DNA from: a virus
Direction: 5' to 3' (one strand)
Length of the DNA stretch: 64,000 bases
Virus record (IMG/VR): IMGVR_UViG_3300050015_000167
Coordinates: 1-64,000 of that record
Part shown: positions 16,977 to 47,830 of the stretch, one piece after another
Layout of the letters: each line of letters opens with the position of its first letter
Numbering within the stretch: position 1 is the first letter of the stretch
Translations under genes and position numbers: made by a program
The notes under the pieces: model-generated
The model's database searches: none
What the model saw: only the letters and a program-made list of their open reading frames with translations
What the model was told of the DNA's origin: nothing

Positions 16977-17498
16977 ATGTATATAATTTATAAGCATACA
17001 AATATCGTTTCTGGAAAATCGTATATAGGATATACAAATAAAACTATAGAAGAAAGATGGAAAATTCATTTACAACGTTCAAAAAATAATTATAAATGGA
17101 AATTCGATAAGGCTCTACGAAAGTATCCAGAAAATTCTTGGAATCATGAAATTTTATGTGAATGTGATACTTTAAAAGAAGCTAATCAAAAAGAAATTGA
17201 AATGATTTCCGTATATAAATCATATAAATATGGTTATAATTCTACATTAGGTGGAGATGGTGGTAGAACTAAAGGAATGACCGGTAAGAAACATTCGGAA
17301 AAAACTAAAGAAAAAATGAGAAGGTCTCGTTTAGGAAAGAAACTTTCTAAAGAAACGAAAAAGAAAATATCATTATCTTGTAAAGGAAAAATAGGTCATC
17401 CAATGTCGTCAGAACATAAAGCTAAATTATTATTATGTCATCTTGGTAAAGATTTAAAAAATAAAAAATTAGCTAAAGGATGTGTCTATGCTCGGTAA
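16977..17498 (+). CDS. GIY-YIG homing endonuclease with NUMOD3-like repeats
   Basis: MYIIYKHTNIVSGKSYIGYTNKTIEERWKIH; inserted between g14-like and g15. Confidence 0.85.
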   Translation: MYIIYKHTNIVSGKSYIGYTNKTIEERWKIHLQRSKNNYKWKFDKALRKYPENSWNHEILCECDTLKEANQKEIEMISVYKSYKYGYNSTLGGDGGRTKGMTGKKHSEKTKEKMRRSRLGKKLSKETKKKISLSCKGKIGHPMSSEHKAKLLLCHLGKDLKNKKLAKGCVYAR

Positions 17499-18231
17499 TG
17501 ATGTGTTTAATTTTCATACAATTGAGAAGATAATTTCTGCCTTTGGGTATATATTTTCAGATATATCTTTCCAGAGAATAGATCCCAATACATCTGCTGT
17601 TAAAACTATTAAGGTTCCAATCAGTCAATCAGCCAAAGAAAAATGGGCTGTACGTGATTTAGAAGATCCAAATGCTGGTGATGAATCACGCCAAAGACAT
17701 GTCCAGATTGTTTTACCCCGAATGGGATATGAAATGATTAATTTCTCTTTCGATCCCACGAGACAATTAACTCCAGTCAATTATCGCGTTCAATCTTCAG
17801 GTAATGGTCCTTCAGCATTAGTACAATTGAATCCTGTTCCTCAAATATTTGATTTTGAATTATATTTACAAACTCGTACATTAAGTGATTCATATGCTAT
17901 TGTTGAACAGATAGCCGCATTCTTTCATCCTGATTATGTTGTGCCCATCATTGATATTCCTGAAATGAATATTCGTAGAGATATCGTTTTTACTATGACT
18001 GGAAAATCTCATTCTGATAGTTATGAAGGTTCATTAATGGATAAACGTATTATTGAATGGACCTTTAATTTTCAAGCACAAGGTCATATTTATCCACCAA
18101 TTAGAGAAAAGAAAGTTATCACGAATACCAAAGTTTTCATGGACAATAGAGAAAGCGTACAACTTACTACGGATCCTCCTGCTCCGAATATTGATGAATC
18201 TTACGATATCATTGAAACTATAGTACCCTAA
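17482..18231 (+). CDS. g15: tail sheath stabiliser / tail completion protein g15
   Basis: FGYIFSDISFQRID...IKVPISQSAKEKW...VQIVLPRMGYEMINFSFD parallels T4 gp15 (LFSNIQIKRQ...IRVPITYASKEHF...ETILPRINLHLVDFSY). Confidence 0.75.
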   Translation: MSMLGNDVFNFHTIEKIISAFGYIFSDISFQRIDPNTSAVKTIKVPISQSAKEKWAVRDLEDPNAGDESRQRHVQIVLPRMGYEMINFSFDPTRQLTPVNYRVQSSGNGPSALVQLNPVPQIFDFELYLQTRTLSDSYAIVEQIAAFFHPDYVVPIIDIPEMNIRRDIVFTMTGKSHSDSYEGSLMDKRIIEWTFNFQAQGHIYPPIREKKVITNTKVFMDNRESVQLTTDPPAPNIDESYDIIETIVP

Positions 18232-18235
18232 ATAT
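18228..18235 (+). promoter_or_regulatory. CTAAATAT motif overlapping the g15 stop, 4 nt before the terS ATG
   Basis: GTACCCTAAATAT-TAAT-ATG 18240. Confidence 0.3.
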
Positions 18236-18239
18236 TAAT

Positions 18240-18779
18240 ATGGCAAAAGGACAAAGAGGGCGACCTCCCAAGCAAACAACATCACAGAAGATTACCAGTG
18301 CCTTGGATATAGCGCAAGAAGAAATTACATCTTTGATGCCTATTGAACAACAGAATGCTTTGGTTCCTGTAATACAAACACCAGAAGTTATCGTGGCTGA
18401 ATCTCCACAGATTGTAAAAGATGCCAAAGATGATTATGATTTTGCCAGAAATAATTTACATAATCTTTTAAGTAAGGGTAATAAACTATTGGAAGGTATG
18501 TCGGATTTATGTAGTGAGAGTGATTCACCCAGAGCATTTGAAGTTGCCGGAAATCTTATAAAAACTTTAGTTGAAGGTACAAGAGAGTTAATGACTCTTC
18601 AAAAAGATATTAGAGACGTAGAAAAGAAGAATTCTCCTGATATTACTCCTGTTACTATTGAAAATGCTGAAGAGGTTAATCAATATCATTTGGAAGGCAC
18701 TACAATGGAAATGCTTGAGGCCTTAAATGAAATACGGCGAAAGAAAATAGAAAATCAACAAACCAAGGAAACAAAATAA
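18240..18779 (+). CDS. g16: terminase small subunit g16
   Basis: [14 protein letters not shown]...[19 protein letters not shown]...[10 protein letters not shown] parallels T4 gp16 (DDYGVVRRNMH...NADSPRHMEVFATLMGQM...ILKLHKDMKD). Confidence 0.75.
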
Positions 18780-19924
18780 TGGCTAATCCAAAAACACCAA
18801 TATATCCGAGTGCTCTTGCTACTGACCTTGATTTAAAGGTTGTTACGGATAATGCCTTTTCACCATTAGCTGCCGGTATTGATGGAGTCGTTACAGATAT
18901 ACCTTTCAATACTAATAGCGTATTTACCTTCCCTTGTCTTATTGCCTTGGAAAATGAAGTTATTTTAGCTGTAGGTCCTATTGTTGGTATTAACATTACA
19001 AATTGTCAAAGAGGATATATTGGTAGTGCTGTTCCTCACGCATTTAATATCGTCGGATTTGCTTATATCTTTGGTGACAATATTAATCAAATAACGGCTG
19101 AAATTAAAGCTATCGAAACCGCACTTGGAATATCTATTGTTAATGTAGTAAAACCGGGTGATGCGGCTGCTGGTGATTTGACTGGTACCTATCCGAACCC
19201 AACATTAGTAGCAACAGCAGTTACTCCAGGAACATATGGAACAGGTGTAGCTACTCCAGTAATTATTGTAGATCAAAAAGGAAGAATTACAAGTTTAACA
19301 ACTACTCCTACTTTGGGAGCAACAGGACCTACAGGACCTACTGGTTATACTGGTCCTGGTAACTTTACAGGATATACTGGATATACAGGGGTAACAGGAC
19401 CTACCGGTTTTACTGGTTTTACTGGTCCTGGTAATTTCACAGGATATACAGGACCCATTGGTCCTACTGGAGCAACTGGACCTACTGGTTTCACAGGATT
19501 CACTGGTCCTGGTAATTTTACAGGATATACAGGATATACAGGACCTACTGGTTATACAGGAATAACAGGACCCACTGGTTATACAGGATCTGGTAACTTC
19601 ACTGGTTATACTGGTTATACAGGACCTACAGGAGCAGGAGCAACAGGACCTACTGGGTTTACTGGATATACAGGAGCAGGAGCAACAGGACCCACTGGGT
19701 TTACTGGACCTGTAGGATATACTGGTCCGGGTAATTTCACAGGATATACTGGACCTACTGGTCCAAGTCAATGGACAACATCTGGTAGTGATATTTCTTT
19801 TGTATCAGGACGAATTATTATAAATGCTCCTACTTATGCTACAGATGGGGCCGCCGGTTCAGGAGGTCTTACAACCGGTATGGTTTATAAGCATTCAGAT
19901 GGTAGTCTTCAAGTCAAACTTTAA
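18779..19924 (+). CDS. collagen-like (G-X-T) fibre protein A
   Basis: About 180-aa N-domain nearly identical to that of 19949..21763, then about 150 aa of GPT/GYT/GFT triplets with 5 GNFTG interruptions (about 19316-19765). Confidence 0.85.
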
Positions 19925-19936
19925 GGATAAAGAGAA

Positions 19937-19944
19937 CTAAATAC
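19937..19944 (+). promoter_or_regulatory. CTAAATAC motif 4 nt before the start codon
   Basis: AACTAAATAC-TTTT-ATG 19949. Confidence 0.3.
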
Positions 19945-19948
19945 TTTT

Positions 19949-21763
19949 ATGGCTAATCCAAATACTCCAGTATATCCGAGTGCTCTTGCTACCGATTTGA
20001 ATTTAAAAGTCGTTACCGATAATGCTTTTTCTCCATTAGCTGCCGGTATTGATGGAGTAGTCACCGATATACCTTTTAATACCAATACTGTTTTTACATT
20101 CCCTTGTCTCATTGCTTTAGAGAATGAAATTATCTTGGCCGTTGGACCTATTGTTGGTATCAATATTACAAATTGTCAAAGAGGATATATTGGTAGTGCT
20201 GTTCCTCATGCGATGAATGTTGTAGGATTTGCTTATATCTTTAGTGACAATATCAATCAGATAACAGCCGAAATTAAAGCTATTGAGACCGCTTTAGGGG
20301 TAAATTTAGGTAATGTTGTTACTCCAAGTACGGCAGCCGGTGGTGATCTCGTAGGATTTTATCCTAACCCAACATTAGCAGCAACCGCAGTTACACCAAA
20401 TATATATGGTGATAATACCCATATTCCTGTAATTACTGTTGACCAAAAAGGACGCATAACAAATGTAAACCCTGTTCTTATTGGCGGCGCAACTGGTCCC
20501 ACAGGTTATACAGGGTATACTGGTTCTGCTGGTCCTACAGGATATACTGGGTTCACTGGCCCGGGTAATTTTACAGGTCCTACTGGTTATACAGGTCCTA
20601 CTGGTTATACAGGAGATACTGGTCCAGGTAACTTTACGGGTTATACAGGTTATACTGGATTTACAGGTTCAACTGGTTATACTGGTCCTATGGGATCTAC
20701 AGGACCAGGTAACTTTACAGGTTACACTGGTTATACAGGTTACACTGGACCAGCAATCACAGGCCCTACCGGTTATACGGGTTACACAGGAGCAGGAAAC
20801 TTTACTGGATATACAGGACCTACTGGATATACTGGTTTCACTGGTGCCACAGGTCCTGTAGGATATACAGGTGCTACAGGTTTTACTGGATATACGGGGA
20901 TGGGTTCAACCGGACCCACTGGTCCCGGTAACTTTACAGGATATACTGGTCCTACTGGTTTTACAGGTTATACGGGTGCGACAGGATTTACTGGTCCGGG
21001 TAACTTTACTGGATATACGGGACCTACAGGATATACAGGAGCTACTGGTTATACAGGTCCAGGTAACTTCACGGGATATACGGGTTACACCGGACCCACA
21101 GGATTCACTGGTCCTATAGGACCTACAGGTTATACAGGATTCACTGGCCCAGGTAACTTTACGGGATATACGGGTTATACTGGAGAAACTGGTCCTACGG
21201 GGTACACTGGTCCTGGAAACTTTACAGGACCTACAGGTTATACTGGTCCCGGTAATTTCACAGGATACACCGGACCAACAGGATATACCGGACCCGGTAA
21301 CTTTACAGGTTATACAGGATATACTGGTCCTAATGGACCTACAGGTGCGACCGGTTATACTGGTCCTATCGGTCCTACTGGAGCAACTGGTTATACTGGT
21401 CCTGGTAACTTTACAGGATATACGGGATATACGGGATATACAGGATATACTGGTCCAGGCAACTTTACCGGTTATACAGGATATACAGGACCTATTGGTC
21501 CCACGGGTTATACGGGGTACACTGGATATACTGGCCCTGGCGCAAGTTCATATGCGGTTCTTATTGGAGATGCTGCCGCAAGTACATTTACTGTTACTCA
21601 TAATTTGAATGCGGCGCATGTTTTTGTTTCGGTAAAAGATGCTACCTCAACATATCTTGTATTTCCAGATATTTCGATTACATCAAATAATGCTATTTCT
21701 GTAGCTTTTTCTATTATACCAACTCTTAACCAATATCTTGTTTCGGTTATAGGATTCGCATAA
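19949..21763 (+). CDS. collagen-like (G-X-T) fibre protein B
   Basis: Same N-domain, about 350 aa of G-X-T triplets with 13 GNFTG interruptions (about 20484-21540), about 70-aa C-terminal beta-rich domain. Confidence 0.85.
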
Positions 21764-21767
21764 AAAT

Positions 21768-22877
21768 ATGGCGAGAATATTTAATATTTCTCCTAATTGG
21801 CAGATTGATTGTGAAACTGCCAATTTTGGAAGTCAGGTTACTACGGATCAAATTAGTTTACCTAATTGGAATAATCTTGCTTTATTATTATCAAGAGGTA
21901 TCACTGGAGGAACTGTATTTACAAATCCTATAGCATCTACTTATAGTATAATATCTAATACCTATTATGGTGGAGTTTTAGCACCTAATGGTGATATACA
22001 TTTTGTTCCTCTAAATGCTGTTGTAGGACAAAAGATTTCTGCTGCTGGTGTTGTTTCTACTTACAGTTTGGTATATACCGTTGGTAGTATGAACACTGGT
22101 GGAGTTTTATCGCCTAATGGTGATATACATTTTGTACCTTATACTGCTTCTGTAGGACAAAAAATAAATTCTTCAGGTGTAGTATCAACTTATAGTTTGG
22201 TATATACCACCGCAACGGCTTATGTTGGTGGAGTTTTAGCGCCTAATGGTGATATACATTTTATACCATTTTTTGGTAGTGTAGGACAAAAAGTGTCCGT
22301 GGCTGGTGTTGTTTCTACTTATAGTTTAGTATATACTACCGCTAATGCATATTCTGGTGGAGTTTTAGCACCTAATGGTGATATATATTTTATGCCCAGG
22401 TCGGCTACTGTAGGACAAAAAGTATCTTCTACTGGTGTGGTATCGACATATAGTTTGGTATATACTACCGCTTCTGCTTGTACTGGTGGTGTAATTGATC
22501 CTAATGGTAATATACATTTGGTGCCTCAAAATGCTTCTGTAGGACAGAAAATATCTATTACGGGTGTTGTTTCTACTTATAGCTTGGTATATACTACCGC
22601 TAATGCATATTCTGGTGGAGTTTTAGCACCTAATGGTGATATACACTTTATACCGTTATCTGCTGCTGTCGGACAAAAAGTATCTCCTGCTGGTGTGGTT
22701 TCTACTTATAGTTTGGCATATACCGCTCCCACCGCGCATCTTGGTGGAATACTTTTACCTAATGGTGATATACATTTTATACCATTTTTTGGTAGTGTAG
22801 GACAAAAATTAACAACAGGAGCAGGTGTTAATTTTGGTATAGGAACTTGTTGTTCTCCTTATCTAAATAAATTTTAG
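21768..22877 (+). CDS. 7 x 43-aa repeat protein (beta-propeller-like), paralog 1
   Basis: Seven GGVLAPNGDIHF[VI]P...VGQK[IV]S..GVVSTYSLVYTT units; C-terminus CCSPYLNKF. Confidence 0.8.
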   Translation: MARIFNISPNWQIDCETANFGSQVTTDQISLPNWNNLALLLSRGITGGTVFTNPIASTYSIISNTYYGGVLAPNGDIHFVPLNAVVGQKISAAGVVSTYSLVYTVGSMNTGGVLSPNGDIHFVPYTASVGQKINSSGVVSTYSLVYTTATAYVGGVLAPNGDIHFIPFFGSVGQKVSVAGVVSTYSLVYTTANAYSGGVLAPNGDIYFMPRSATVGQKVSSTGVVSTYSLVYTTASACTGGVIDPNGNIHLVPQNASVGQKISITGVVSTYSLVYTTANAYSGGVLAPNGDIHFIPLSAAVGQKVSPAGVVSTYSLAYTAPTAHLGGILLPNGDIHFIPFFGSVGQKLTTGAGVNFGIGTCCSPYLNKF

Positions 22878-22885
22878 GAACTATT

Positions 22886-24013
22886 ATGGCAAACAATTCA
22901 ATCTCGACAGAATGGAATTCAGAAGTAACCTCACAAAATTGGGGTTTATATCCTTCTGGTGATAATAGTTCAATCGATACCGCATTAGTCGCATGGTATA
23001 ATTTACAGAATCTTATTGGAAAAAGTACGAACAGAGGAACAACATTTGCGAATGGAGTTATTTCTACTTACAGTCTGGTTTATACAACTACTAATGCCTA
23101 TATTAGTGGAGTACTTTCACCTAATGGAGATATTCATTTTATACCTTTTAGTGCTCCTGTAGGACAAAAAATAAATTCTTCTGGTGTTGTATCTACTTAT
23201 AGTTTGGTATATACTACTACATCTAATTATGCTGGTGGAGTACTCGCCCCTAATGGTGATATTCATTTTGTTTCTTACAATGCTGCTAAAGGACAAAAAA
23301 TAAATTCTTCTGGTATTGTTTCTACATATAGTTTGGTATATACAACCACTGGTGCCTATGTTGGTGGAGTACTTTCACCTAATGGTGACATACATTTTGT
23401 TCCTTTTAATGCTGTTGTAGGACAAAAGATTTCTGCTGCTGGTGTGGTTTCTACTTATAGTTTGGTATATACTGCGTCTGGTACGTACCAAGGGGGCACA
23501 CTTGCTCCTAATGGTGATATTCATTTTGTACCTTATTCTGCTACTATAGGTCAAAAGATATCTGCTGCTGGTGTTGTATCAACTTATAGCTTAATATATA
23601 CTACTGTTGGTGCGTATGATGGTGGAGTACTTGCTCCTAATGGGGATACACATTTTGTGCCTCGCGCCGCAATAGTAGGACAAAAAATATCTATTACTGG
23701 TGTTGTTTCAACCTATAGTTTGGTATATACTGCTGCTACGGCATATACAGGTGGTGTACTCGCCCCTAATGGTGATATACATTTTGTTCCTCAATCTGCT
23801 GCTGTAGGACAAAAGATTTCTGCTGCTGGTGTGGTTTCTACTTATAGTTTGGTATATACTACTACGGGTGCTTATTATGGTGGAGTACTTTCACCCAATG
23901 GTGATATTTATTTTATTCCTTTATCATCCGTTGTAGGACAAAAAATATCTACATTACCTGTTATTCCTTTTGATAATGCTCTTTGTCTTTCCCCTTTCTT
24001 TAATAAATTCTAA
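22886..24013 (+). CDS. 7 x 43-aa repeat protein, paralog 2
   Basis: Seven repeats; C-terminus CLSPFFNKF. Confidence 0.8.
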   Translation: MANNSISTEWNSEVTSQNWGLYPSGDNSSIDTALVAWYNLQNLIGKSTNRGTTFANGVISTYSLVYTTTNAYISGVLSPNGDIHFIPFSAPVGQKINSSGVVSTYSLVYTTTSNYAGGVLAPNGDIHFVSYNAAKGQKINSSGIVSTYSLVYTTTGAYVGGVLSPNGDIHFVPFNAVVGQKISAAGVVSTYSLVYTASGTYQGGTLAPNGDIHFVPYSATIGQKISAAGVVSTYSLIYTTVGAYDGGVLAPNGDTHFVPRAAIVGQKISITGVVSTYSLVYTAATAYTGGVLAPNGDIHFVPQSAAVGQKISAAGVVSTYSLVYTTTGAYYGGVLSPNGDIYFIPLSSVVGQKISTLPVIPFDNALCLSPFFNKF

Positions 24014-24017
24014 ATAC
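24010..24017 (+). promoter_or_regulatory. CTAAATAC motif overlapping the upstream stop, 4 nt before the start codon
   Basis: TTCTAAATAC-CATT-ATG 24022. Confidence 0.3.
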
Positions 24018-24021
24018 CATT

Positions 24022-25140
24022 ATGATAAGAGATATTTCCCCAACATTTTTAACAGAAGTTGCTGCCCTCACAAGAGGAACTATACCTACAGGTAACGATA
24101 GTTCTATATCAACTAATCTTGTTTCTTGGACGGGATTTCAGAAACTTCTAAAAGAAGGTGTGAATGGTGGATCTCTATTCAATAATACTGTAGTTTCTAC
24201 TTATAGTTTGGTATATACGAATATTAATAATTCTGCTGGTGGTGTTCTTTCTCAAAATGGAGATATACATTTTATACCAAGATCTTCAGTTGTAGGACAA
24301 AAGATATCGGCTTCTGGTGTTGTTTCAACCTATAGTTTGGTATATACAACTGCTAATGCGTATCATGGAGGAGTACTTGCGCCTAATGGTGATATTCATT
24401 TTGTACCCTTACTTGCGAATAGAGGACAAAAAGTTTCTTCTGCCGGTGTTGTTTCAACCTATAGCTTGGCATATACCGCAGGAAATTATCAAGGCGGTGT
24501 TCTTGCGCCTAATGGTGATATACATTTTGGTCCTCAAGTTGGACCAGGACAAAAAATTTCTGCTGCCGGTGTTGTTTCAACCTATAGTTTGGTATATACG
24601 GTTACTAATGCTTATGTTGGTGGTGTTCTTGCGCCTAATGGTGACATACATTTTGTACCCTATTCTGCTGTTGTAGGACAAAAAATTTCAGCATTAGGTG
24701 TTGTAACCACATATAGTTTGGTATATACAACCGCGGGTGCTTATTATGGTGGAGTACTTTCCCCTAATGGGGATATTCATTTGATACCTAATTCTGCTGT
24801 TGTAGGACAAAAAATATCTATTACTGGTGTAGTATCCACTTATAGTTTGGTATATACAACCGCGGTTGCTTATATTGGTGGTGTACTCGCCCCTAATGGT
24901 GATATACATTTTGTTCCTCAATCTGCTGCTGTAGGACAAAAGATTTCTGCTGCTGGTGTGGTTTCTACTTATAGTTTGGTATATACTAATTCCTTTTCTT
25001 TTATGAGTGGCACACTTGCGCCTAATGGTGATATTCATTTTGTACCCTATTCTTCTGTTGTGGGACAAAAAATTTCAACTAATCCAGGAGTAAAATTTAC
25101 CCTGGGTATTTGTATGAGCCCATTTTTAAATAAATTTTAA
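24022..25140 (+). CDS. 7 x 43-aa repeat protein, paralog 3
   Basis: Seven repeats; C-terminus CMSPFLNKF. 112 bp (24877-24988) are identical to 23750-23861. Confidence 0.8.
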   Translation: MIRDISPTFLTEVAALTRGTIPTGNDSSISTNLVSWTGFQKLLKEGVNGGSLFNNTVVSTYSLVYTNINNSAGGVLSQNGDIHFIPRSSVVGQKISASGVVSTYSLVYTTANAYHGGVLAPNGDIHFVPLLANRGQKVSSAGVVSTYSLAYTAGNYQGGVLAPNGDIHFGPQVGPGQKISAAGVVSTYSLVYTVTNAYVGGVLAPNGDIHFVPYSAVVGQKISALGVVTTYSLVYTTAGAYYGGVLSPNGDIHLIPNSAVVGQKISITGVVSTYSLVYTTAVAYIGGVLAPNGDIHFVPQSAAVGQKISAAGVVSTYSLVYTNSFSFMSGTLAPNGDIHFVPYSSVVGQKISTNPGVKFTLGICMSPFLNKF

Positions 25141-25160
25141 TCTGAATAAATATTATCACT

Positions 25161-26501
25161 ATGTACAACCGCGACAAAATTATTGAAACGATGCACCAAA
25201 TTAAAGATGAGTCTGATACTATTGCTCCTTATGTTGTAATAGCACAACCAAGAAGAATTAAAGAAGAGACTCCCGCCCAAAATTTTGATGGGTATGATAA
25301 CTTACATGTTGACTTACATGGGTTTAGTCATGGATATGTTGATATTGCTGGAGAAAAAGTAGATGTTGCCAGAAATTATTTAATGGAACAGGCTCTACAA
25401 AGTGGAGCCAAATATTTATTTTTTATCGGTGAAGATACAGTAGTTCCTATGAACGCCTTTAAAGTACTTCATAAGACAGCCGAAGAAAATCCTGAAGCGA
25501 TCATTGCTGGCGTTTATTATATAAAATTATCAGATGCTATGATTATGGTAAGAACAGGTGATTGGATCACTATACCTAATGTTGATCCGGGCCAATTGTT
25601 AGAAGCATGGCAAACAGGTATGGATTGTATGATGATTCCTATTACTGTTCTTCAAAAAATAAAAGATTCTTTTCCAGAATTACCATTTTGTTGTATCGGT
25701 AATAATGTAGATGGAATTCCTTTTATTGGAGAAGATAATTTCTTTGCTCATTTAGTTCATAAACTTGGTATCAAAATACTTGTTAATACTGATGTTCAAT
25801 GTTTACATATGGATATTGGTAATGGTAAATATACAGCGCATCCCGATGTGGATTTGAAAAATTACTTTACAAATATTCCTGTTACTGAAAGACTTACTAT
25901 AGCAGATAAGAAATATATTGATGACCGGTGGCTTAATAGATTACCAGAAGGTACAAGCAATTCTAAAAAATATCAACTTGACGATTTTATCAAACTTGGT
26001 TACCCCGTTAAATTCAATATGGGTTGCGGCCGCGATAAATTTGAGGGATATATTGGTATAGACAAATATAATGATGCTGCGGATATTAAAGAAGATGTAA
26101 CCAAATTATCTCTTCCATATTCTTGTGCTGATGAAATTTATGCCTCGCATTTAATTGAGCATATTCCTAATTTTCAAATTCCTGAAGTATTAACTTCATG
26201 GTTTAATATATTAAAACCAGAAGGACAATTAATTTTAGAAACTCCTAATCTGGAAGAATTATGTAAAGATTTTGAGACAGCCACAGAACAAGAACGATAT
26301 ATGATTTCATTGTGTATTTTTGGAGCAATTAATACTGATGGAAAGCAATTTGAAAACGGAACAGCAAGTCCACATTTATGGGGTTTTTATCCTAAAATAT
26401 TAGTAGAGATTCTTGAAAAAATAGGGTTCAAAGAAATAACTGTTCTACCACAAAAGGGATTACATCCTGGTAAGAATTTTAGAATAGAGGCGAAAAAATG
26501 A
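25161..26501 (+). CDS. glycosyltransferase-like N-domain fused to class I SAM-dependent methyltransferase
   Basis: N-part is GT-A-like (YLFFIGEDTVVP). C-part FNMGCGRDKFEGYIGIDK...ASHLIEHIP...LKPEGQLILETPN is a typical methyltransferase. Confidence 0.6.
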   Translation: MYNRDKIIETMHQIKDESDTIAPYVVIAQPRRIKEETPAQNFDGYDNLHVDLHGFSHGYVDIAGEKVDVARNYLMEQALQSGAKYLFFIGEDTVVPMNAFKVLHKTAEENPEAIIAGVYYIKLSDAMIMVRTGDWITIPNVDPGQLLEAWQTGMDCMMIPITVLQKIKDSFPELPFCCIGNNVDGIPFIGEDNFFAHLVHKLGIKILVNTDVQCLHMDIGNGKYTAHPDVDLKNYFTNIPVTERLTIADKKYIDDRWLNRLPEGTSNSKKYQLDDFIKLGYPVKFNMGCGRDKFEGYIGIDKYNDAADIKEDVTKLSLPYSCADEIYASHLIEHIPNFQIPEVLTSWFNILKPEGQLILETPNLEELCKDFETATEQERYMISLCIFGAINTDGKQFENGTASPHLWGFYPKILVEILEKIGFKEITVLPQKGLHPGKNFRIEAKK

Positions 26502-26941
26502 ATGTAACTATTTCCCTAGAAGGATTAAGAAGTTTAGATGCTCCAGAAACCCGGGTCTTGGCTGATATTGCCGTCACCTACAATTCTATTGTATATAATT
26601 GGCAAGTATATATTCCTACTAATACAACAAATTTAGGTGATTTTTTACAGAGTATCAGTGGTTTAATTACGGCTGATATTGATGAAAAGGAAGCCATCTG
26701 GGCTGCTTTAACACCAAAAACTCGTACTATTGATACTGGTATGGATAGTATTACTGTTGCTATTAATAAATCGGAAATTGTTAAGGCAACTATTCCCGAT
26801 TACTATGCTTTGCGTCGGGCAGCCTATCCATCAATTTTAGACCAAATAGGAGCATTATGGAAAGGACCAAAAGATCCTGATTATATTGCTATGCAGCAAG
26901 CCATAGAAACCGTAAAAAATAATATTCCTAAAAAATCATAA
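26498..26941 (+). CDS. hypothetical protein (147 aa)
   Basis: ATGA-coupled to the upstream gene. Confidence 0.6.
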   Translation: MNVTISLEGLRSLDAPETRVLADIAVTYNSIVYNWQVYIPTNTTNLGDFLQSISGLITADIDEKEAIWAALTPKTRTIDTGMDSITVAINKSEIVKATIPDYYALRRAAYPSILDQIGALWKGPKDPDYIAMQQAIETVKNNIPKKS

Positions 26942-26942
26942 T

Positions 26943-28682
26943 ATGACAGAAACTTATCTTGGAAATTCGAGTTTAAAAGATACCAATGTAAAAATCTCTT
27001 GGACACCAAAACGGCTCGCAGAACTACAAAAATGCGAGGAAGATCCCGTGTATTTTATCACGAAATATATCCAAGTAGTAACCATTGACGAAGGTGTAAC
27101 TGATTTTAAACTTTGGGATTTCCAAGCTAAATTGATTGAAACCGTACACGGTAATCGCTATGTTATTACCGTCATGCCTCGTCAAAGTGGTAAATCTACC
27201 ACGATGATTGCTTACTTCCTACATTATATTCTTTTCAACAAATATAAGCGTGTTGGTATCTTGGCTAATAAACGTGATACTGCTATAGAATTACTTTCCC
27301 GTCTTCAATTGGCTTTTGAGTTGTTACCAATGTGGTTACAACAGGGTGTGAAAGTTTGGAATAAAACAAGAATTGAATTAGAAAATGGTTGTATTATTGA
27401 AGCCCATGCTACTTCTGGCGCATCTGTTCGTGGAAAGACATTCAATATTATTTTCTTGGATGAATTTGCTCACATTGAACCAAAATTAGCAGATAAATTT
27501 TGGACATCTACATTTCCTGTTATTTCACAAGGTACAACATCTAAAGTTATAATTGTTTCTACTCCTAATGGAGTTAATCTATTTCATGATTTATGGACAA
27601 AAGCACAATTAGATCATTCGCATAAAGATTGGAACCAATTTATTCCTATTCAAGTTCATTATACTGAAGTTCCTGGTAGAGAAAAAGCTGAATGGGCTGA
27701 AAAGATGGTATCAATTATTGGACAAGATAGATTTGACCAAGAATTTGGTTGTGAGTTTTTGGGATCAGGTGCTACTCTTATTAACGGTAGATTTTTAAAA
27801 CTTTTACCAATTCGATCACCCTTATACTCTCAAAATGGATTAGATGTTTATGAAAATCCTGTTAAAACAATAAATGAACCTCATGTTTATGTTATTACGG
27901 TTGATACAGCACAAGGAAAACAATTAGATTATTCTGCGCTTTGTGTTATGGATGTTACTTCTTCTCCTTATAAAATAGTCGCTAAATATAGGAGTAATGT
28001 AATTCCTCCTGTATTATTTGCCGATCAGATTATACCTATCGCAAAACGGTATAATAATGCTTTCATTCTTATAGAAATGGATGGTCCTGGTTTTCAAGTT
28101 GCGGATGATTTACATCATATTCATGAATATGAAAATATCATGATGGTAGCAACAAAAGGCCGTTCAGGACAAATTTTAGCTACAGGTTTTGGTAATACAG
28201 GAAAAAATGTCCAAAGAGGATTAAAAATGAGTACTCCTGTTCGTAGGACAGGTTGTGCTAATCTTAAAACTCTGATAGAGAATAAAAAATTAGAAATATA
28301 TGATAATGATATTAAAAATGAATTAAATTCCTTTGAATTAAAAGGAGATAAATACCAAGCCGCAGAAGGACACCATGATGATTTAGTAATGACTCTTGTT
28401 ACCTTTTGTTGGTTAACAACCCAAAAACATTTTAGGGATCTCGTGGATTCTGCTGTTAGAGACGATCTATTAGATGAATATGCTCCAAATTTCGATCATG
28501 ATTTGACACCATATGGATGGCTTGAAATTCATCAAGATGTAGAAGAAATTATGTTAACTAAAAAGGATATTTGGAAAAGTGCCCAAAGTGATATTTGGGA
28601 ACATTATGCCGAAAGAGAACGCATAAAAGCCACCATTGATATGGACCGATTAAAACGATTACAAGATTATGGCTGGGCTTAA
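26943..28682 (+). CDS. g17: terminase large subunit g17
   Basis: Walker A MPRQSGKST; Walker B IIFLDEFAH; 579 aa; position before the sheath gene. Confidence 0.9.
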   Translation: MTETYLGNSSLKDTNVKISWTPKRLAELQKCEEDPVYFITKYIQVVTIDEGVTDFKLWDFQAKLIETVHGNRYVITVMPRQSGKSTTMIAYFLHYILFNKYKRVGILANKRDTAIELLSRLQLAFELLPMWLQQGVKVWNKTRIELENGCIIEAHATSGASVRGKTFNIIFLDEFAHIEPKLADKFWTSTFPVISQGTTSKVIIVSTPNGVNLFHDLWTKAQLDHSHKDWNQFIPIQVHYTEVPGREKAEWAEKMVSIIGQDRFDQEFGCEFLGSGATLINGRFLKLLPIRSPLYSQNGLDVYENPVKTINEPHVYVITVDTAQGKQLDYSALCVMDVTSSPYKIVAKYRSNVIPPVLFADQIIPIAKRYNNAFILIEMDGPGFQVADDLHHIHEYENIMMVATKGRSGQILATGFGNTGKNVQRGLKMSTPVRRTGCANLKTLIENKKLEIYDNDIKNELNSFELKGDKYQAAEGHHDDLVMTLVTFCWLTTQKHFRDLVDSAVRDDLLDEYAPNFDHDLTPYGWLEIHQDVEEIMLTKKDIWKSAQSDIWEHYAERERIKATIDMDRLKRLQDYGWA

Positions 28683-31507: not shown

Positions 31508-32092
31508 ATGCCAGTAAGAAGTATTACAGGTTTTAGAGCCGCATTAGTTGGTAGCGGTACAAGACCAAACCTTTTCCAAATCGTATTGAGATTTCCCGTA
31601 TTAGCCGCCTCTGGTGCTGCCGATGGGTTAGTAACTCTATTATCTGAATCTTCATCTATTCCAGCCGATAAAATCGGTGAAATTGAAGTTCCTTATATGG
31701 GGCGTAAAACCTATTATCCTGGTGATCGTGATTTTGATCCATGGACAGTTACCATCATGAGCGATGAAAATTGGTTAATCCGCGATGCATTTCAGCGTTG
31801 GTTAAGCGCATTGAATAGTCACGTTGGTAACGTCCGTGATTTTGCGGCCGCAACACCATCTGATTATACAACCGATGCGTTAGTCCAACAGTTATCGAAG
31901 TTAGATTTACCCCCAATTGCACAATATAACATGAAGGGGTGTTTTCCAACAGAAGTTGGAGCTATGGAATTAGATTGGGGAACAAATAACACCATTCAAA
32001 AATTCCAAGTAACTTTCCGTTATCAGTGGTGGGATGCAGTTTCAGTTAATGGTCCTACAACTGACGGTGATGGTGGTCCTTTAGCGGGCTAA
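31508..32092 (+). CDS. g19: tail tube protein g19
   Basis: RPNLFQIVLRFP...SSSIPADKIGEIEVPYMGRK...FDPWTVTIMSDE pattern of the gp19 family; position after the sheath gene. Confidence 0.8.
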   Translation: MPVRSITGFRAALVGSGTRPNLFQIVLRFPVLAASGAADGLVTLLSESSSIPADKIGEIEVPYMGRKTYYPGDRDFDPWTVTIMSDENWLIRDAFQRWLSALNSHVGNVRDFAAATPSDYTTDALVQQLSKLDLPPIAQYNMKGCFPTEVGAMELDWGTNNTIQKFQVTFRYQWWDAVSVNGPTTDGDGGPLAG

Positions 32093-36983: not shown

Positions 36984-38303
36984 ATGAGAGATTCAATGAC
37001 CACAGATAAATTGGTCGAAAAGTGGGCACCGGTTCTCGATGATGAGAATTTTGGCAAGTTGACTAATCGCCATAAACGCCGCGTAGTTGCGACAGTTATG
37101 GAAAATCAACAAGAAGAATATACAAAAACTCGCCAAATCTTGTCGGAAGCCGCTCCAACACTAAGTACTGGTGCTGGAATCGCTAATTTCGATCCAATCT
37201 TGATTTCATTAGTAAGACGTGCAATGCCCAATCTTATTGCGTATGATGTTTGCGGCGTTCAACCCATGGTTGGACCAACTGGCTTAATCTTCGCTATGAA
37301 GTCACGTTATACCAGCAAGACCGGTACAGAAGCTTTATTCAATGAAGCTGATACCGCGTTTACTGGTCAGACAGCAACAGCCCCAACAGCCGGTTTCGGT
37401 GGAACAGCCCATGCTGGTACGGATCCCGTATCTACTGGTTTCCCTCCAACTGCTTCTGGTTATACAACTGGTCGTCCTATGACAACCGGACAAGGTGAAG
37501 CTTTGGGAGATCAAGTTGGACCTGATTTCAACCAAATGGCATTCTCAATCGACAAGATTTCCGTTGAAGCAAAGACCCGCGCATTGAAAGCTGAGTATTC
37601 AGTTGAAGTTGCCCAAGATCTAAAAGCTATCCATGGTCTTGACGCTGAAACAGAATTAGCGAATATTCTTTCCGCTGAAATCTTAACCGAAATCAACCGG
37701 GAAATTATCCGTACCATTTACTTCATCGCCGTCCCTGGTGCAGCACAAACCACAGTTCCTGGCACATTCGACTTAGATGTTGACGCAAACGGTCGTTGGT
37801 CAGTTGAGAAGTTTAAGGGTTTGATGTTCCAAGTAGAACGCGAAGCCAATGCTATTGCAAAGGCAACCCGTCGTGGTAGAGGGAATGTTATCATCTGTTC
37901 ATCAGACGTTGCTAGTGCGCTAGTAATGGCTGGTAAATTAGATTATACTCCTGCTATCCAAAGTGACCTAACTGTTGACGATACTGGCAACACATTCGCT
38001 GGTGTTCTAAACGGACGTTTCAGAGTTTATATCGATCCTTACTTTGGTAATGGTGGTGTAAACGAAGAATTCTTATTGGTTGGCTATAAGGGTGCTAATG
38101 CGTATGATGCCGGTTTGTTCTATTGCCCATACGTTCCTCTACAGTTGTTTAGAGCACAAGATCCACATAGCTTCCAGCCAAAAATCGCATTTAAGACAAG
38201 ATATGCTGTTGCTCCAAATCCATTCTGGAGTGATGCTAATGCTACGCTTCAAGCGAATAGTTCCGCATATTACAGAATGATTAAAATCACTAATTTGTTA
38301 TAG
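36984..38303 (+). CDS. g23: major capsid protein g23
   Basis: LIAYDVCGVQPMVGPTGLIFAMKSRY signature of gp23; 439 aa; follows the scaffold gene. Confidence 0.9.
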   Translation: MRDSMTTDKLVEKWAPVLDDENFGKLTNRHKRRVVATVMENQQEEYTKTRQILSEAAPTLSTGAGIANFDPILISLVRRAMPNLIAYDVCGVQPMVGPTGLIFAMKSRYTSKTGTEALFNEADTAFTGQTATAPTAGFGGTAHAGTDPVSTGFPPTASGYTTGRPMTTGQGEALGDQVGPDFNQMAFSIDKISVEAKTRALKAEYSVEVAQDLKAIHGLDAETELANILSAEILTEINREIIRTIYFIAVPGAAQTTVPGTFDLDVDANGRWSVEKFKGLMFQVEREANAIAKATRRGRGNVIICSSDVASALVMAGKLDYTPAIQSDLTVDDTGNTFAGVLNGRFRVYIDPYFGNGGVNEEFLLVGYKGANAYDAGLFYCPYVPLQLFRAQDPHSFQPKIAFKTRYAVAPNPFWSDANATLQANSSAYYRMIKITNLL

Positions 38304-38426: not shown

Positions 38427-39344
38427 ATGATAGAAAATAAACCGTACACATACATTTACTATACTACTGATATGATTCCTTTTTATGTAGGAAAAGGGAC
38501 CGATAAACGAGCATATAAACATTTAACTGAATCTTTAGAAAAAACCAACAATCCAGAAAAAGTAAAAGAAATACAAAAAATTCTTGAATCTGGCAAAACA
38601 CCCATTATAAAAATAATGTATGCTGAAACCGAGTCTGAAGCCTTTGAATTAGAAGAATTTTTGACCTATCATTGGGGATTACGTCACAAAGGTGGAATTC
38701 TTACTAATATGCAATATGGTGGTGAAAATGGTAAATTTGTTGGTTTTGCTGATTTACCTAGAACACAAAAACATAAAAAGAAAATTAGTAAAGCAACCAA
38801 AAAATATAATAATTCTCATCCAGAAAAATGGGAAAAATTTACTAATCAACAGAAAAAAGAACCTAAATCTCCAAAAGCTTGTAAGAAAATGTCCGAAACT
38901 AAACTTAAATTGTATGCAGAACACCCGGAACTCCATCCCCGCCTTGGGAAACAACAATCAGAATATTCTATTCAAGTTTCAAGAGAAGTTAATTCTGGTA
39001 CATGGGAAATAACCTTCCCCGATCACCATAAAGAATTGATAACTAATTTGAAACTGTTTTGTAAAGAACATTCCATTAATCATGGAAATCTTGCAAACGG
39101 ATCTGCTGCTGGATATAAAGCAATCAATTTAAATCCCAATAAAAAGAAAGCCAAAACTCAATCAGCAAAAGACGCCATTTCTAATGCAAGATCATGTTCC
39201 TATCAAATTATTTTTCCTGATAACCACATTGAGATCATATCTAATCTTTCTAAATGGCGAGAAAACAATAATATCAAACGTGATAATTTAATGACACCAA
39301 AAGGTAATTCTCAAGGTTACCATGCCACAAAAATTGAATCCTAA
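38427..39344 (+). CDS. GIY-YIG family homing endonuclease (305 aa)
   Basis: YTYIYYTTDMIPFYVGKGTDKRAYKH...EAFELEEFL...LTNMQYGG. Confidence 0.7.
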   Translation: MIENKPYTYIYYTTDMIPFYVGKGTDKRAYKHLTESLEKTNNPEKVKEIQKILESGKTPIIKIMYAETESEAFELEEFLTYHWGLRHKGGILTNMQYGGENGKFVGFADLPRTQKHKKKISKATKKYNNSHPEKWEKFTNQQKKEPKSPKACKKMSETKLKLYAEHPELHPRLGKQQSEYSIQVSREVNSGTWEITFPDHHKELITNLKLFCKEHSINHGNLANGSAAGYKAINLNPNKKKAKTQSAKDAISNARSCSYQIIFPDNHIEIISNLSKWRENNNIKRDNLMTPKGNSQGYHATKIES

Positions 39345-40831: not shown

Positions 40832-42058
40832 ATGAGACGCTTACTCATCGGATTTCTGGCGATTTCGCTGTTCGGGCAATCGCTGATGAAGATTGTTAAC
40901 CAGGGCGATCCGAAGGCCTCCTGGTATACCACCCACACCACCGGGTTTGCCCCCGTGTACTCAAAAACTGGGAGCACGCTTATTTGGGCGTGGCCGGATG
41001 GGACTTTCGATAGCAGCAATTCTCCTACGAAAACTCTCGCATCCGGAACGAAGCGCGTTGAGGTCCAATCGCAGGATGGATTTGGTGCTGTAACGGCTAT
41101 CGATGTTAACTCGATGGATCTCACGGGGAGCATCCCCTCGCTGTCGGCCAACACGGCGCTGACGGTCTTCGACGCGCACGGCAACCAGCTCACGGGGAGC
41201 ATCCCCTCGCTGTCGGCCAACACGGCGCTGACGGTCTTCGACGCGGGCGGCAACCAGCTCACGGGGAGCATCCCCTCGCTGTCGGCCAACACGGCGCTGT
41301 CGTACTTCGACGCGGGCGGCAACCAGCTCACGGGGAGCATCCCCTCGCTGTCGGCCAACACGGCGCTGACGGTCTTCTACGCGCACGGCAACCAGCTCAC
41401 GGGGAGCATCCCCTCGCTGTCGGCCAACACGGCGCTGACGGTCTTCTACGCGCACGGCAACCAGCTCACGGGGAGCATCCCCTCGCTGTCGGCCAACACG
41501 GCGCTGTCGTACTTCTACGCGGGCGGCAACCAGCTCACGGGGAGCATCCCCTCGCTGTCGGCCAACACGGCGCTGACGGTCTTCTACGCGGGCGGCAACC
41601 AGCTCACGGGGAGCATCCCCTCGCTGTCGGCCAACACGGCGCTGACGGTCTTCTACGCGCACGGCAACCAGCTCACGGGGAGCATCCCCTCGCTGTCGGC
41701 CAACACGGCGCTGACGGTCTTCTACGCGGGCGGCAACCAGCTCACGGGGAGCATCCCCTCGCTGTCGGCCAACACGGCGCTGACGGTCTTCTACGCGGGC
41801 GGCAACCAGCTCACGGGCTCAATCCCCGGCAGTTTTGCGACTCAACAGACTTTGGCGAATCTGGATATATCGACTAATGCCCTCCCATCCTCCGACATCG
41901 ATCAGATTCTCGCGGATCTGGTGGTAAGTCTGAGTATCAGTGGCCGTGTGGTGTGCGATGTGGAATTGGGCGGTGGGACTAATGGACCACCAACGGGCCA
42001 GGGCATCACGGACAAGGCCACTCTTATCGCAGGCGGGTGGACGGTGGTGACCAATTGA
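40832..42058 (+). CDS. leucine-rich-repeat protein with signal peptide
   Basis: MRRLLIGFLAISLFGQ, then ten 23-aa units GNQLTGSIPSLSANTAL[TV/SY]F[DY]A[HG] (N.L.G.IP..L LRR signature). Confidence 0.8.
   Translation: MRRLLIGFLAISLFGQSLMKIVNQGDPKASWYTTHTTGFAPVYSKTGSTLIWAWPDGTFDSSNSPTKTLASGTKRVEVQSQDGFGAVTAIDVNSMDLTGSIPSLSANTALTVFDAHGNQLTGSIPSLSANTALTVFDAGGNQLTGSIPSLSANTALSYFDAGGNQLTGSIPSLSANTALTVFYAHGNQLTGSIPSLSANTALTVFYAHGNQLTGSIPSLSANTALSYFYAGGNQLTGSIPSLSANTALTVFYAGGNQLTGSIPSLSANTALTVFYAHGNQLTGSIPSLSANTALTVFYAGGNQLTGSIPSLSANTALTVFYAGGNQLTGSIPGSFATQQTLANLDISTNALPSSDIDQILADLVVSLSISGRVVCDVELGGGTNGPPTGQGITDKATLIAGGWTVVTN
41117..41820. repeat. 69-bp tandem repeat, about 10 near-identical copies
   Basis: GGCAACCAGCTCACGGGGAGCATCCCC... 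recurs at 41180, 41249, 41318, 41387, 41456, 41525, 41594, 41663, 41732 and 41801. Confidence 0.9.
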
Positions 42059-43688: not shown

Positions 43689-44503
43689 AAATCATTTGAA
43701 ACCTTTCTTTACGTTACTTTAGGATTAGCAGAAACACCACCGATGGTTATACTAATGTTATTAAACGCGCATTACCTTTTATTGGTGATAATTTTACCAT
43801 TGATAATGTAAATCACTATATAATGAATCTTAGGAAAAATAACAAAACCTCTTCGTATATTCAAAATATTTGTGTATCTTTAGAAAGATATGGAGAATTT
43901 ATTGGTATTCCTATTAAATTAGGGCGACCTAAAAAATCAAATCAAATATTAAAATCTCCATTATCTGAAGCTGAAATAACAATAATTATAGAAGCAACTA
44001 AAAATATTAGAGAAAAATCAATTTTATCTCTATTAGCATATTCTGGAATAAGAAATCAAGAATTGTGTTCTTTAAGGATCAGAAATTTAAATTTAGCCCA
44101 ACAATCTGTATTTGTCGAAAATGGAAAAGGACATAAATCTAGGTTAGTTTTTATTTCTGGAAATTGTTGCGAATTATTACAAAAATACTTGCATACCACT
44201 CGTATCGATATTAGTCCAGATGAATTGTTATTTCTAACCTTGCGTAATAATTTACCATTAGAACCACAGGATTTGCGTAAAATAATCAAAACTGTTGCAA
44301 AAAGAACTAAAATCACCAAAAGGATTCATCCTCATCTTTTTCGTCATAGTTTAGCAACAAACATGCTTAATAGAGGAGCAAATCTTATGACTATTAAAGA
44401 ACAATTAGGACATAAGTATATTGAAACTACAATGATTTATATTCATAGTACCCAACAAAGAGTCCAGGCAGAATATCGCATGTTTACACCAAGTTACATG
44501 TAA
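43668..44503 (+). pseudogene. AT-rich paralog of the tyrosine recombinase, needing a -1 frameshift near 43725-43740
   Basis: 43668-43811 (MTTTDSLKSFETFLY...) and the frame of 43823..44503 align consecutively with the GC-rich copy. C-part HLFRHSLATNMLNRGANLMTIKEQLGHKYIETTMIYIH is intact. Confidence 0.6.
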
Positions 44504-44569
44504 ACATAAATAAGGAAATATATCAACCTTCGGTCATACCAAAGGTTATTACGCAAACAAAGTAACACC

Positions 44570-46726: not shown

Positions 46727-46734
46727 CATAAATA
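46727..46734 (+). promoter_or_regulatory. late-promoter-like motif CATAAATA
   Basis: 22 nt before ATG 46756. Confidence 0.3.
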
Positions 46735-47822: not shown

Positions 47823-47830
47823 CATAAATA
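47823..47830 (+). promoter_or_regulatory. late-promoter-like motif CATAAATA
   Basis: 14 nt before ATG 47844. Confidence 0.3.

Follow-up and report, generated by a model that had tools for sequence, protein, structure and literature searches.

What, if anything, modifies the collagen-like fibres of an uncultured phage? The question is raised by a 64,000-nucleotide stretch of viral DNA (positions 1 to 64,000 of IMG/VR virus record IMGVR_UViG_3300050015_000167; hereafter the window), in which three plus-strand genes, here called A, B and C, carry long runs of glycine-X-threonine (G-X-T) triplets. The element GNFTG recurs inside these runs, and the gene that follows C encodes a protein with two glycosyltransferase (GT) domains. 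An earlier reading made from the letters alone (the sequence-only reading) had proposed that the phage makes glycosylated fibres resembling the Bacillus protein BclA, that GNFTG shifts the glycine register and is an N-x-T sequon, and that four GT domains accompany the fibres. The analysis reported here suggests that this proposal was right in outline, and that the register shift, the sequon and the four GT domains have to be given up or revised. The best-supported mechanism, to which we give a probability of about 0.6, is O-glycosylation of the threonines in the G-X-T stalks by the enzyme encoded beside gene C, which is of the SgtA/GmaR type. The genes on which the argument rests are the following (aa, amino acids; nt, nucleotides).

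18779..19924, plus strand: gene A, collagen-like fibre protein of 381 aa; N-terminal anchor domain (aa 1 to about 130, conserved in the lineage), then one GDLxGxYPNPTL...VDxKGRIT unit; G-X-T stalk at aa 180-330 (nt 19316..19768) with 5 GNFTG and 2 phase-shifting GAGATG; C-terminal tail of 50 aa
19949..21763, plus strand: gene B, 604 aa, paralogue of A with the N-domain in common; stalk at aa 180-531 (nt 20486..21541) with 13 GNFTG; C-terminal β domain of 70 aa, related to the C-termini of phage head-decoration and tail-fibre proteins
46756..47112, plus strand: LtfC-like β-sandwich protein of 118 aa, whose stop overlaps the start of gene C
47112..47804, plus strand: gene C, fibre of 230 aa with a 28-aa N-terminus; stalk at aa 29-94 (nt 47196..47393) with 2 GNFTG; 136-aa TNF/C1q-like jelly-roll head
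47844..49607, plus strand: GT2-TPR-GT2 glycosyltransferase, starting 39 nt past gene C; N-module (aa 1-385), a GT-A domain with DxSxARN and DxDE motifs plus tetratricopeptide repeats (TPRs), of GmaR/SgtA type; C-module (aa 386-587), a second GT2 domain

An enzyme gene paired with G-X-T collagen

The link between this enzyme and G-X-T collagen was examined in both directions. A degenerate DNA pattern for PGNFTGYTG, run on IMG/VR, returned 94 stretches (the motif-selected loci), against which all 86 plus-strand open reading frames (ORFs) of the window were compared. Only the protein of 47844..49607 recurred, in 29 of the 94 loci; its gene and the collagen gene were in every case on the same strand, and often only tens of bases apart. 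In the reverse direction, an alignment of the enzyme's N-module retrieved 80 viral loci, 72 of which held on the same strand a Thr-rich collagen ORF, defined as one of 10 or more triplets in which Thr fills at least 40% of the Y positions; the count for the opposite strand was 0. No such ORF was present in 31 control loci selected by TerL (362 kb; Fisher p = 2e-20). After de-duplication the linkage was retained in 56 of 64 clusters at 90% identity and in 28 of 33 at 70%, and the GC content of the enzyme-linked loci ranges from 33 to 63%. In metagenome-assembled genomes (MAGs) of Clostridia and Actinomycetota, distant relatives (26-31% identity) lie directly upstream of GPT collagen genes. The enzyme gene had been noticed as lying directly past the third fibre gene, which holds (the gap is 39 nt); the claim that four GT domains accompany the fibres does not, as only the two domains of this protein track G-X-T collagen.

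The C-terminal domains of the partner collagen proteins fall into at least 34 families with no relation to one another, and 19 of the proteins are almost tail-less, so that the G-X-T stalk is the only feature common to the partners. When 120 loci were taken by a generic G-P-x collagen pattern, the enzyme was found in 3 of the 33 with Thr-rich stalks and in none of the 72 with Thr-poor stalks. The linkage is near-obligate from the enzyme side, and not from the collagen side. The enzyme family comprises at least 952 homologues (E ≤ 1e-10). Close relatives occur in 15 of 185,579 species genomes, all on MAG contigs. Of 50,697 GenBank phage records only 4 have a match, at about 25% identity, which makes the pairing essentially one of uncultured phages. 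Enzyme and collagen form a widespread, specific gene pair that appears to be previously undescribed: no description of it was found in the literature searched on collagen-like proteins, phages and glycosylation.

In Pfam, the enzyme matches GT2 (2.9e-23) together with TPR_2, TPR_8 and TPR_12. The TPR matches fall at positions 231-379, and the remainder of the module beyond its catalytic part resembles TPR proteins; D118, D120 and E121 are invariant in the N-module alignment. Among proteins of solved structure, the best relatives of the catalytic part are Listeria GmaR (1.5e-11 by profile search, 9.8e-9 when one sequence is used) and SunS (3.4e-6). The alignment with GmaR spans the nucleotide-binding and DxDE regions, including the DTGSTD, DxSxARN and DxDE motifs. 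GmaR, a GT+TPR protein, attaches O-linked N-acetylglucosamine (O-GlcNAc) to flagellin (PMC9638930). As in the window enzyme, a GT-A domain is followed in GmaR and SunS by TPR or helical domains for substrate recognition. Their substrates, flagellin and, for SunS of SPβ, a Cys of sublancin, differ from the collagen stalks proposed here, and the window enzyme differs from GmaR in being without an antirepressor domain and in having a second GT2 domain. Both modules are conserved in the family, and relatives of 750-1230 aa have inserts between them; among database homologues these inserts are Methyltransf_25, Methyltransf_11, Methyltransf_24 and GT32-like domains (PF04488/PF05704), for example in the related loci L066 (6167..9835), P0044 and P0058.

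A cellular parallel is found in a Clostridia MAG (L213, 10004..12631), where a 363-aa GT-A+TPR protein, 31% identical to aa 7-355 of the window enzyme (E 6e-41), ends 3 nt before a 510-aa BclA-like GPT protein with a globular C-terminus. To judge from its sequence, this pair resembles sgtA/bclA3 and looks like the cellular counterpart of the phage gene pair. In C. difficile, SgtA (358 aa; GT-A 1-260, TPR 262-358) is encoded directly upstream of bclA3, and in vitro it transfers β-O-GlcNAc onto Thr, and also Ser, of GPT peptides (PMC7157674). The N-module of the window enzyme matches SgtA, as described in publication, in length and domain order, whereas the second fused GT2 domain, and the methyltransferase or GT32-like inserts of relatives, are features of the phage enzyme that SgtA does not share.

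Architecture of the three fibres

All three fibre genes exceed the Pfam Collagen threshold (PF01391; 39.8 bits for A, 96.3 for B and 27.3 for C, with a cut-off of 27.2), in agreement with the G-X-T runs first noticed in them. The runs are 3-11 triplets long, with about 50, 117 and 22 triplet positions in A, B and C, respectively. Nearly every triplet is Thr-terminated, and GYT, GPT, GFT and GAT dominate. Antisense and off-frame ORFs within the collagen genes (such as 19295..19771 on the minus strand, and 20481..20861) were set aside as artefacts of the repeats.

A BclA-like plan of G-X-T stalk, O-glycosylated Thr and C1q-like head is a good model for the window fibres. C. difficile BclA3 and B. 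anthracis BclA, which are collagen-like glycoproteins of the exosporium, have, like the window fibres, a G-X-T stalk, and in the BclA3-SgtA system, as here, a GT-A+TPR gene adjoins the collagen gene. The head of BclA is of C1q/TNF type. For gene C, structure prediction of the C-terminal domain, a check that the sequence-only reading had called for, gave a TNF/C1q-type jelly-roll for the last 138 aa (AlphaFold2 pLDDT 81, pTM 0.76). Its best Foldseek match is the TNF-like lectin BC2L-C (TM 0.68), and EDA-A1, C1QL2 and the C1q domain of Caprin-2 are also matched; in BFVD, Foldseek returned many phage proteins named 'C1q domain' or 'Collagen triple helix repeat'. This fold is typically trimeric. 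The analogy with BclA therefore holds for C, which combines a G-X-T stalk, a linked homologue of protein GTs and a C1q/TNF-type head; it fails for the C-termini of A and B, which differ from that type. Other differences concern the setting (phage rather than spore genes), the triplets (GYT-dominated rather than GPT-dominated) and the GxG-NFT interruption, which is a feature of the phage stalks. The exosporium-targeting N-terminus of BclA has no equivalent in the phage fibres, the N-domains of A and B being fibre anchors of the phage lineage. Given this phage context and the missing exosporium N-terminus, the fibres would work like BclA without being members of the BclA family. Collagen fibres with C1q-like heads in uncultured Caudovirales and giant viruses have the stalk and the jelly-roll in common with C, but neither a dedicated adjacent protein GT nor GNFTG is described for them in the literature searched.

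The almost identical N-domains of A and B, already noted in the sequence-only reading, show 88% identity over 132 aa and 82% over 179 aa. Relatives have the same N-domain in just one fibre gene, about 500 aa long and located between gp16 and gp17 (42-64% identity; L172, 8500..9993; L178, 5896..7416; L181, from about 8584 onwards), the shaft of which consists of repeated GGDLxGxYPNPT...TYGD..VDxKGRIT units and not of collagen. Because of this match, A and B appear to be a duplicated, lineage-specific fibre whose shaft was swapped for a collagen stalk. A profile search of the PDB with the A/B N-domain gave no match, and its AlphaFold2 model is of low confidence (pLDDT 42, from a 7-sequence alignment). 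With repeats masked, tblastn of gene B found matches through the 70-aa C-terminus only. For these last 70 aa, likenesses were found to the C-terminal end of a capsid decoration protein (9nx3, 9e-5) and to PHROGs that carry head-decoration and tail-fibre annotations; on this sequence evidence, head and tail are both compatible as the location of B. The tail of A (19766..19924, the last 50 aa or so) loosely resembles the foldon of T4 fibritin (..GQAYVRKDGEWVLL..) and could be a small trimerisation element.

In the closest relative, the orthologue of C (L095, 843..3737) has a head 60% identical to that of C, and an open frame of 965 aa with 20 GNFTG as against 230 aa and 2 GNFTG here. Stalk length is therefore plastic, and differs about four-fold between phages whose GTs are 81% identical. 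The LtfC-like gene lies upstream of the collagen gene in the relatives L043 and L095, and directly upstream in L133; a role as fibre adaptor or assembly factor is possible. PHROG tail-fibre families match the stalks, and T4-like structural genes (gp15, gp16, TerL, sheath, portal and gp23) surround the fibre genes, a context which points to A, B and C as probable collagen-like fibres of the virion.

The GNFTG element and the proposed target of glycosylation

Gene structure, motif statistics, homology, linkage and the predicted fold of the C head are observations, and from them we infer every biochemical step of the following scheme. Late in infection, in the cytoplasm, the N-module, with its GT-A domain followed by TPRs as in GmaR and SgtA, would recognise unfolded G-X-T chains and place a first sugar on Thr, possibly also on Ser, at the Y position of the triplet. 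The fused C-terminal GT2 domain would then add another sugar. Because the two modules are separated by methyltransferase or extra GT domains in related phages, the glycan would be lineage-specific, and the nature of the inserts suggests that it is partly methylated. The chains would trimerise starting at their C-terminal domains, in C at the TNF/C1q-like head, and the glycans would stabilise a hydroxyproline-free triple helix, coat the fibre, or both. The enzyme is thus proposed to be a fibre O-glycosyltransferase and glycan extender in one; Thr O-glycosylation is favoured because the enzyme is homologous to GmaR and to the clostridial GT-A+TPR gene that precedes a BclA-like gene.

A different residue would be concerned if GNFTG were a glycosylation site. 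The copy numbers first reported for it, 5, 13 and 2 in A, B and C at irregular intervals, are exact (the spacing is 12-46 residues). The statement that it shifts the Gly register, by contrast, is wrong as a net statement: the Gly phase is the same before and after the motif in 20 of 20 cases, and run starts differ by multiples of 3. GPG-NFT-G amounts to a single triplet with Asn in place of Gly, the residue just before it being a Gly at the Y position. True phase-shifting breaks number four (GAGATG twice in A, GPAITG and GMGSTG in B). No two of the 20 copies have the same 27-mer, and every codon varies synonymously (AAC/AAT, TTT/TTC and four Thr codons); their invariance is therefore at the protein level and reflects amino-acid selection, not recent DNA duplication. 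The 94 motif-selected stretches contain 536 copies of GNFTG, and their dominant triplet is GYT, so the Tyr-rich G-Y-T stalk, which had at first seemed unusual, is a family trait.

An unbiased sample of the motif was obtained from 96 unique collagen-like proteins at loci picked by the enzyme rather than by the motif. After a Y-position Gly, the interrupting triplet is NFT in 202 copies, AFT in 37, SFT in 4, AYT in 3 and NST in 2, which gives the consensus G-x-G-[N/A/S]-[F/Y]-T-G. Phe thus occupies the middle position in 243 of 248 copies, and Phe kept without Asn (41 copies, with Ala or Ser instead) outnumbers Asn kept without Phe (2 copies) about 20-fold. In the relative L133, a 913-aa protein has 16 GAG-AFT, 2 GAG-AYT and no NFT, so that Asn is replaced in all of its 16 Phe-containing copies. 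A sequon would predict a fixed Asn and a free middle residue, and the opposite pattern argues against one.

The possibility that GNFTG is a true N-x-T sequon, N-glycosylated on Asn by a cytoplasmic phage enzyme beside or instead of Thr O-glycosylation, had been raised by the sequence-only reading. In its favour, NFT is present in all 20 window copies under amino-acid selection, and Asn is the majority residue in relatives (about 82% of copies after a Y-position Gly). Chloroviruses, moreover, N-glycosylate their capsid protein with their own cytoplasmic GTs, one of which is a multi-domain GT-GT-methyltransferase. The idea is nevertheless weakened by the fact that Phe and Thr are more conserved than Asn, and by the behaviour of the enzymes. 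GNFTG is found in the collagen gene at only 33 of the 72 enzyme-selected loci that have a G-X-T collagen gene, and the second GT2 module is indifferent to it, being present in 32 of 32 cases with the motif and 34 of 39 without; a module tracking NFT was sought among the enzyme-selected loci and none was found. Among about 35 window ORFs scanned, a part of the total, there was no enzyme of GT41/NGT or STT3/PglB type, and position -2 is Pro, whereas PglB-type transferases need Asp or Glu. We therefore regard cytoplasmic N-glycosylation of the Asn by a phage enzyme as doubtful, whether alone or on top of Thr O-glycosylation, in which case AFT and SFT would be unglycosylated or O-glycosylated derivatives. 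If it did occur, these would be the first bacteriophage virion proteins with their own N-sequon and machinery, a counterpart of chlorovirus capsid glycosylation.

GxG-[N/A/S]-F-T is best read, on its sequence pattern, as a conserved, phase-preserving structural interruption of the helix and not as a sequon, because Asn is replaceable while Phe and Thr stay, and because about half of the enzyme-linked collagens are without the motif. It most likely makes the stalk locally flexible, or forms a small aromatic knot in it, at irregularly spaced points. Asn is favoured in the motif, yet dispensable. Collectins and C1q have interruptions of their Gly-X-Y repeats that give a kink or hinge, such as the GQG kink of mannose-binding lectin; the G-x-G break is common to both, but here an [N/A/S]-F-T triplet restores the phase, up to 20 times per protein. 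In the literature searched, GNFTG was not mentioned in a collagen context, and the matches were epitope lists and degenerate primers. The interruption may modulate how flexible bacterial-type collagen is, a point of interest for engineering recombinant collagens.

Several points weigh against Thr O-glycosylation by this enzyme or against parts of the scheme. In the stretches examined, the enzyme was not seen with most Thr-rich viral collagen genes (30 of 33 in the generic sample and 65 of 94 motif-selected loci were without it), so it is no general requirement for G-X-T fibres. Within the window, A and B lie 26-28 kb away from the enzyme gene. The likeness to SgtA is drawn from its published architecture and from the SgtA-like clostridial gene, and not from the sequence of SgtA itself. 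The predominance of Asn in the interruption is not explained by a pure 'small residue' model. Finally, the enzyme family carries the Joint Genome Institute (JGI) annotation 'glycosyltransferase involved in cell wall biosynthesis'.

This annotation of the source favours a reading in which the GTs spare the fibres and instead remodel host envelope polysaccharide or lipopolysaccharide (LPS), for superinfection exclusion or receptor masking, or modify DNA; proximity to fibre genes would then come only from shared hypervariable host-recognition regions. The closest NCBIfam matches are also polysaccharide GT2 enzymes, all far under their cut-offs. In environmental phages, a GT gene close to tail-fibre genes is routinely taken for a modifier of host LPS or DNA, and such an interpretation has been given for marine T4-like phages (PMC7029224). 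For the present enzyme we consider it unlikely. The linkage is specific to Thr-rich collagen, same-strand and often abutting (72/80 versus 0/31); it spans phages of 33-63% GC and is still seen at 26-31% identity in Clostridia. Fibres of other types are not partners, and the 34 unrelated head families share just the stalk. The nearest solved relatives, GmaR and SunS, are protein or peptide glycosyltransferases, the module has TPRs, and no membrane-spanning or lipid-carrier features were noted.

The timing suggested by promoter-like boxes also bears on this choice. The relaxed T4-type late box was taken as NATAAATA and the strict T4 late promoter as TATAAATA. On the plus strand, NATAAATA occurs 14 times, 10 of them in the intergenic 13.8% of the sequence (p = 1.5e-6), at 11529, 25145, 28695, 29188, 32100, 35459, 36925, 44505, 46727 and 47823. 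These ten lie 6-73 nt upstream of start codons, including those of the sheath, portal, gp23, 25161, 44586, 46756 and 47844 genes, and are likely T4-type late promoters; the strict TATAAATA is not enriched (4 found, 8 expected). The boxes nearest the genes discussed here are the following.

25145..25152, plus strand: NATAAATA box, 8 nt before the start codon of the 25161 gene, a GT-methyltransferase fusion
44505..44512, plus strand: late-promoter-like box, upstream of the 44586 gene
46727..46734, plus strand: NATAAATA box, 21 nt before the LtfC-like gene, which runs into gene C
47823..47830, plus strand: NATAAATA box, 13 nt before the start codon of the GT2-TPR-GT2 gene

Such a box marks late genes in T4-like phages, and the DNA glucosyltransferases of T4 are early genes; the late-type boxes therefore fit action on virion proteins better than early DNA modification. 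If a virion protein is the substrate, it could still be one other than the collagen Thr, such as the globular heads, the LtfC-like protein, or capsid or tail-tube termini. The heads and N-domains here are Ser/Thr-rich too, and mycobacteriophage GTs encoded beside structural genes are reported, on experimental evidence, to modify virion proteins, with glycans on the C-termini of capsid and tail-tube proteins (Freeman et al. 2023). Those targets and GT families differ from the present ones, for which glycosylation is predicted only. That a target of this kind replaces the stalk is improbable: the partners share no non-collagen domain (34 tail families, 19 proteins almost tail-less), the enzyme stands only beside Thr-rich stalks in the generic collagen sample, and SgtA, of the same architecture, modifies Thr inside GPT repeats (PMC7157674).

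Threonine O-glycosylation of the stalks, if it holds, has consequences beyond this window. As a general rule, the gene for a GT of this SgtA/GmaR-type family nearly always has, in viruses, a Thr-rich collagen-like fibre gene as its neighbour. To our knowledge, glycosylation of phage virions has been experimentally shown only in mycobacteriophages, whereas O-glycosylated collagen-like fibres would be common on uncultured phages, with hosts spanning 33-63% GC. Such glycans would affect fibre stability without hydroxyproline, receptor recognition, protease resistance and immune recognition, and many GTs of viral metagenomes annotated under 'cell wall biosynthesis' would need re-annotation.

Other glycosyltransferase candidates and the phage background

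Two further GT domains had been assigned, at 25161 (fused to a methyltransferase) and at 44586, besides the two GT2 domains of 47844..49607, which are confirmed. The GT-A-like domain fused to a methyltransferase stands; the 44586 assignment has sub-threshold matches only. None of the window's three GT candidates matched a defence system in PADLOC. The larger window ORFs scanned include no nucleotide-sugar biosynthesis genes. The genes concerned and their neighbours are the following.

21768..22877, plus strand: β-propeller paralogue 1, with Vgb-lyase-like blades and the C-terminus C.SP.LNKF
22886..24013, plus strand: β-propeller paralogue 2
24022..25140, plus strand: β-propeller paralogue 3
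25161..26501, plus strand: GT-methyltransferase protein, with a GT-A-like module (aa 1-270) and an S-adenosylmethionine-dependent methyltransferase module (aa 275-446)
26498..26941, plus strand: orf147, a homologue of which lies downstream of the GT-A(-methyltransferase) homologue in 17 of 17 related loci, directly or 0.3-1.4 kb off
44586..45662, plus strand: 358-aa protein with GT-B/GT4-like matches at aa 174-287, all sub-threshold

The GT-A-like module of the 25161 protein matches phrog_34859 (6e-9), and its homologues match GT2/Anp1. The window protein is just under the Pfam cut-off, whereas homologous methyltransferase modules of multi-GT2 fusion proteins are above it; the two modules occur separately in thousands of proteins. 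The methyltransferase module is 36-47% identical to methyltransferase domains of multi-GT2 fusion enzymes, a likeness which fits sugar methylation, and also 27-37% identical to the methyltransferase inserts of some collagen-linked multi-domain GTs.

Upstream of it, the three tandem paralogues of about 370 aa (21768..25140) are built of blades of about 46 aa (..GVVSTYSLVYTT..GGVLAPNGDIHFVP..VGQKIS..), end in C.SP.LNKF and match streptogramin/virginiamycin B lyase β-propellers (PDB 2qc5, 3e-7). In 17 other viral loci, several visibly T4-like, a fibre ending in a B-type 70-aa domain is followed, in this order, by one to three propeller genes (48-76% identical across the matched stretch), a GT-A gene with or without methyltransferase, and an orf147 homologue. 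At these loci the collagen parts have no GNFTG and are poor in Thr, which fills a fraction of 0.02-0.29 of the Y positions in runs of 10 or more triplets. This different conserved neighbourhood places the 25161 GT-methyltransferase in a second cassette, which spans 19949..26941 in the window. A role in serving G-X-T fibres is largely rejected for it, its neighbours elsewhere being propellers, orf147 and Thr-poor fibres; judging from these neighbours, the propeller proteins or the B-type terminal domain are more likely targets than the Thr of G-X-T.

The assignment of the 44586 protein as a GT is unproven. Its best Pfam match is Glyco_trans_1_4 (23.6 bits, cut-off 27), with GT4-conflict and Glycos_transf_1 weaker, and its homologues are 'hypothetical' in Ralstonia jumbo phages. 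A sequence search of the PDB gave no match, and no linkage to collagen genes was found. Between this gene and uvsY lies a second tail-tube-like gene (45667..46257; phrog_45 1.6e-27, Phage_TTP_2 weak), distant from gp19 (31508..32092).

From its gene content, the source is a distant T4-like myovirus; its genome is put at about 177 kb. The GC content of the window is 38.9%, and the core T4-like order from gp13 to gp23 is present, with gp15, gp16, TerL, sheath, tube, portal and gp23.

17482..18231: gp15 (PF16724, 1e-52)
18240..18779: small terminase (gp16)
26943 onward: TerL, sheath, tube and portal
36984..38303: gp23 (PF07068, 1e-141)

The closest GenBank relatives by gp15 are Synechococcus phages (cyanophages), at about 33% identity, and megablast of 17000..27000 against GenBank phages gave no nucleotide-level matches. 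The JGI metagenomes contain a protein identical to C, on a contig recorded as up to 176,794 bp long. The nearest IMG/VR contig, of 175.7 kb, has TerL and the GT2-TPR-GT2 enzyme at 81% identity.

Other genes of the window are worth recording. A 226-aa tyrosine recombinase/integrase-like protein (43823..44503; a Phage_integrase match was obtained on the identical gene of L218) is encoded in this otherwise T4-like, presumably lytic genome. There are two putative homing endonucleases: one of GIY-YIG type (LEM-3-like; 38427..39344) right behind gp23, and one HNH-like, as read from its sequence (49608..49997), between the GT2-TPR-GT2 gene and a helicase gene at 49994. The structural region also holds a 408-aa leucine-rich-repeat protein (40832..42058; LRR_4, 3e-29). 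An IMP dehydrogenase/GMP reductase family gene (59957..61000; PF00478, 1e-79) is probably an auxiliary metabolic gene.

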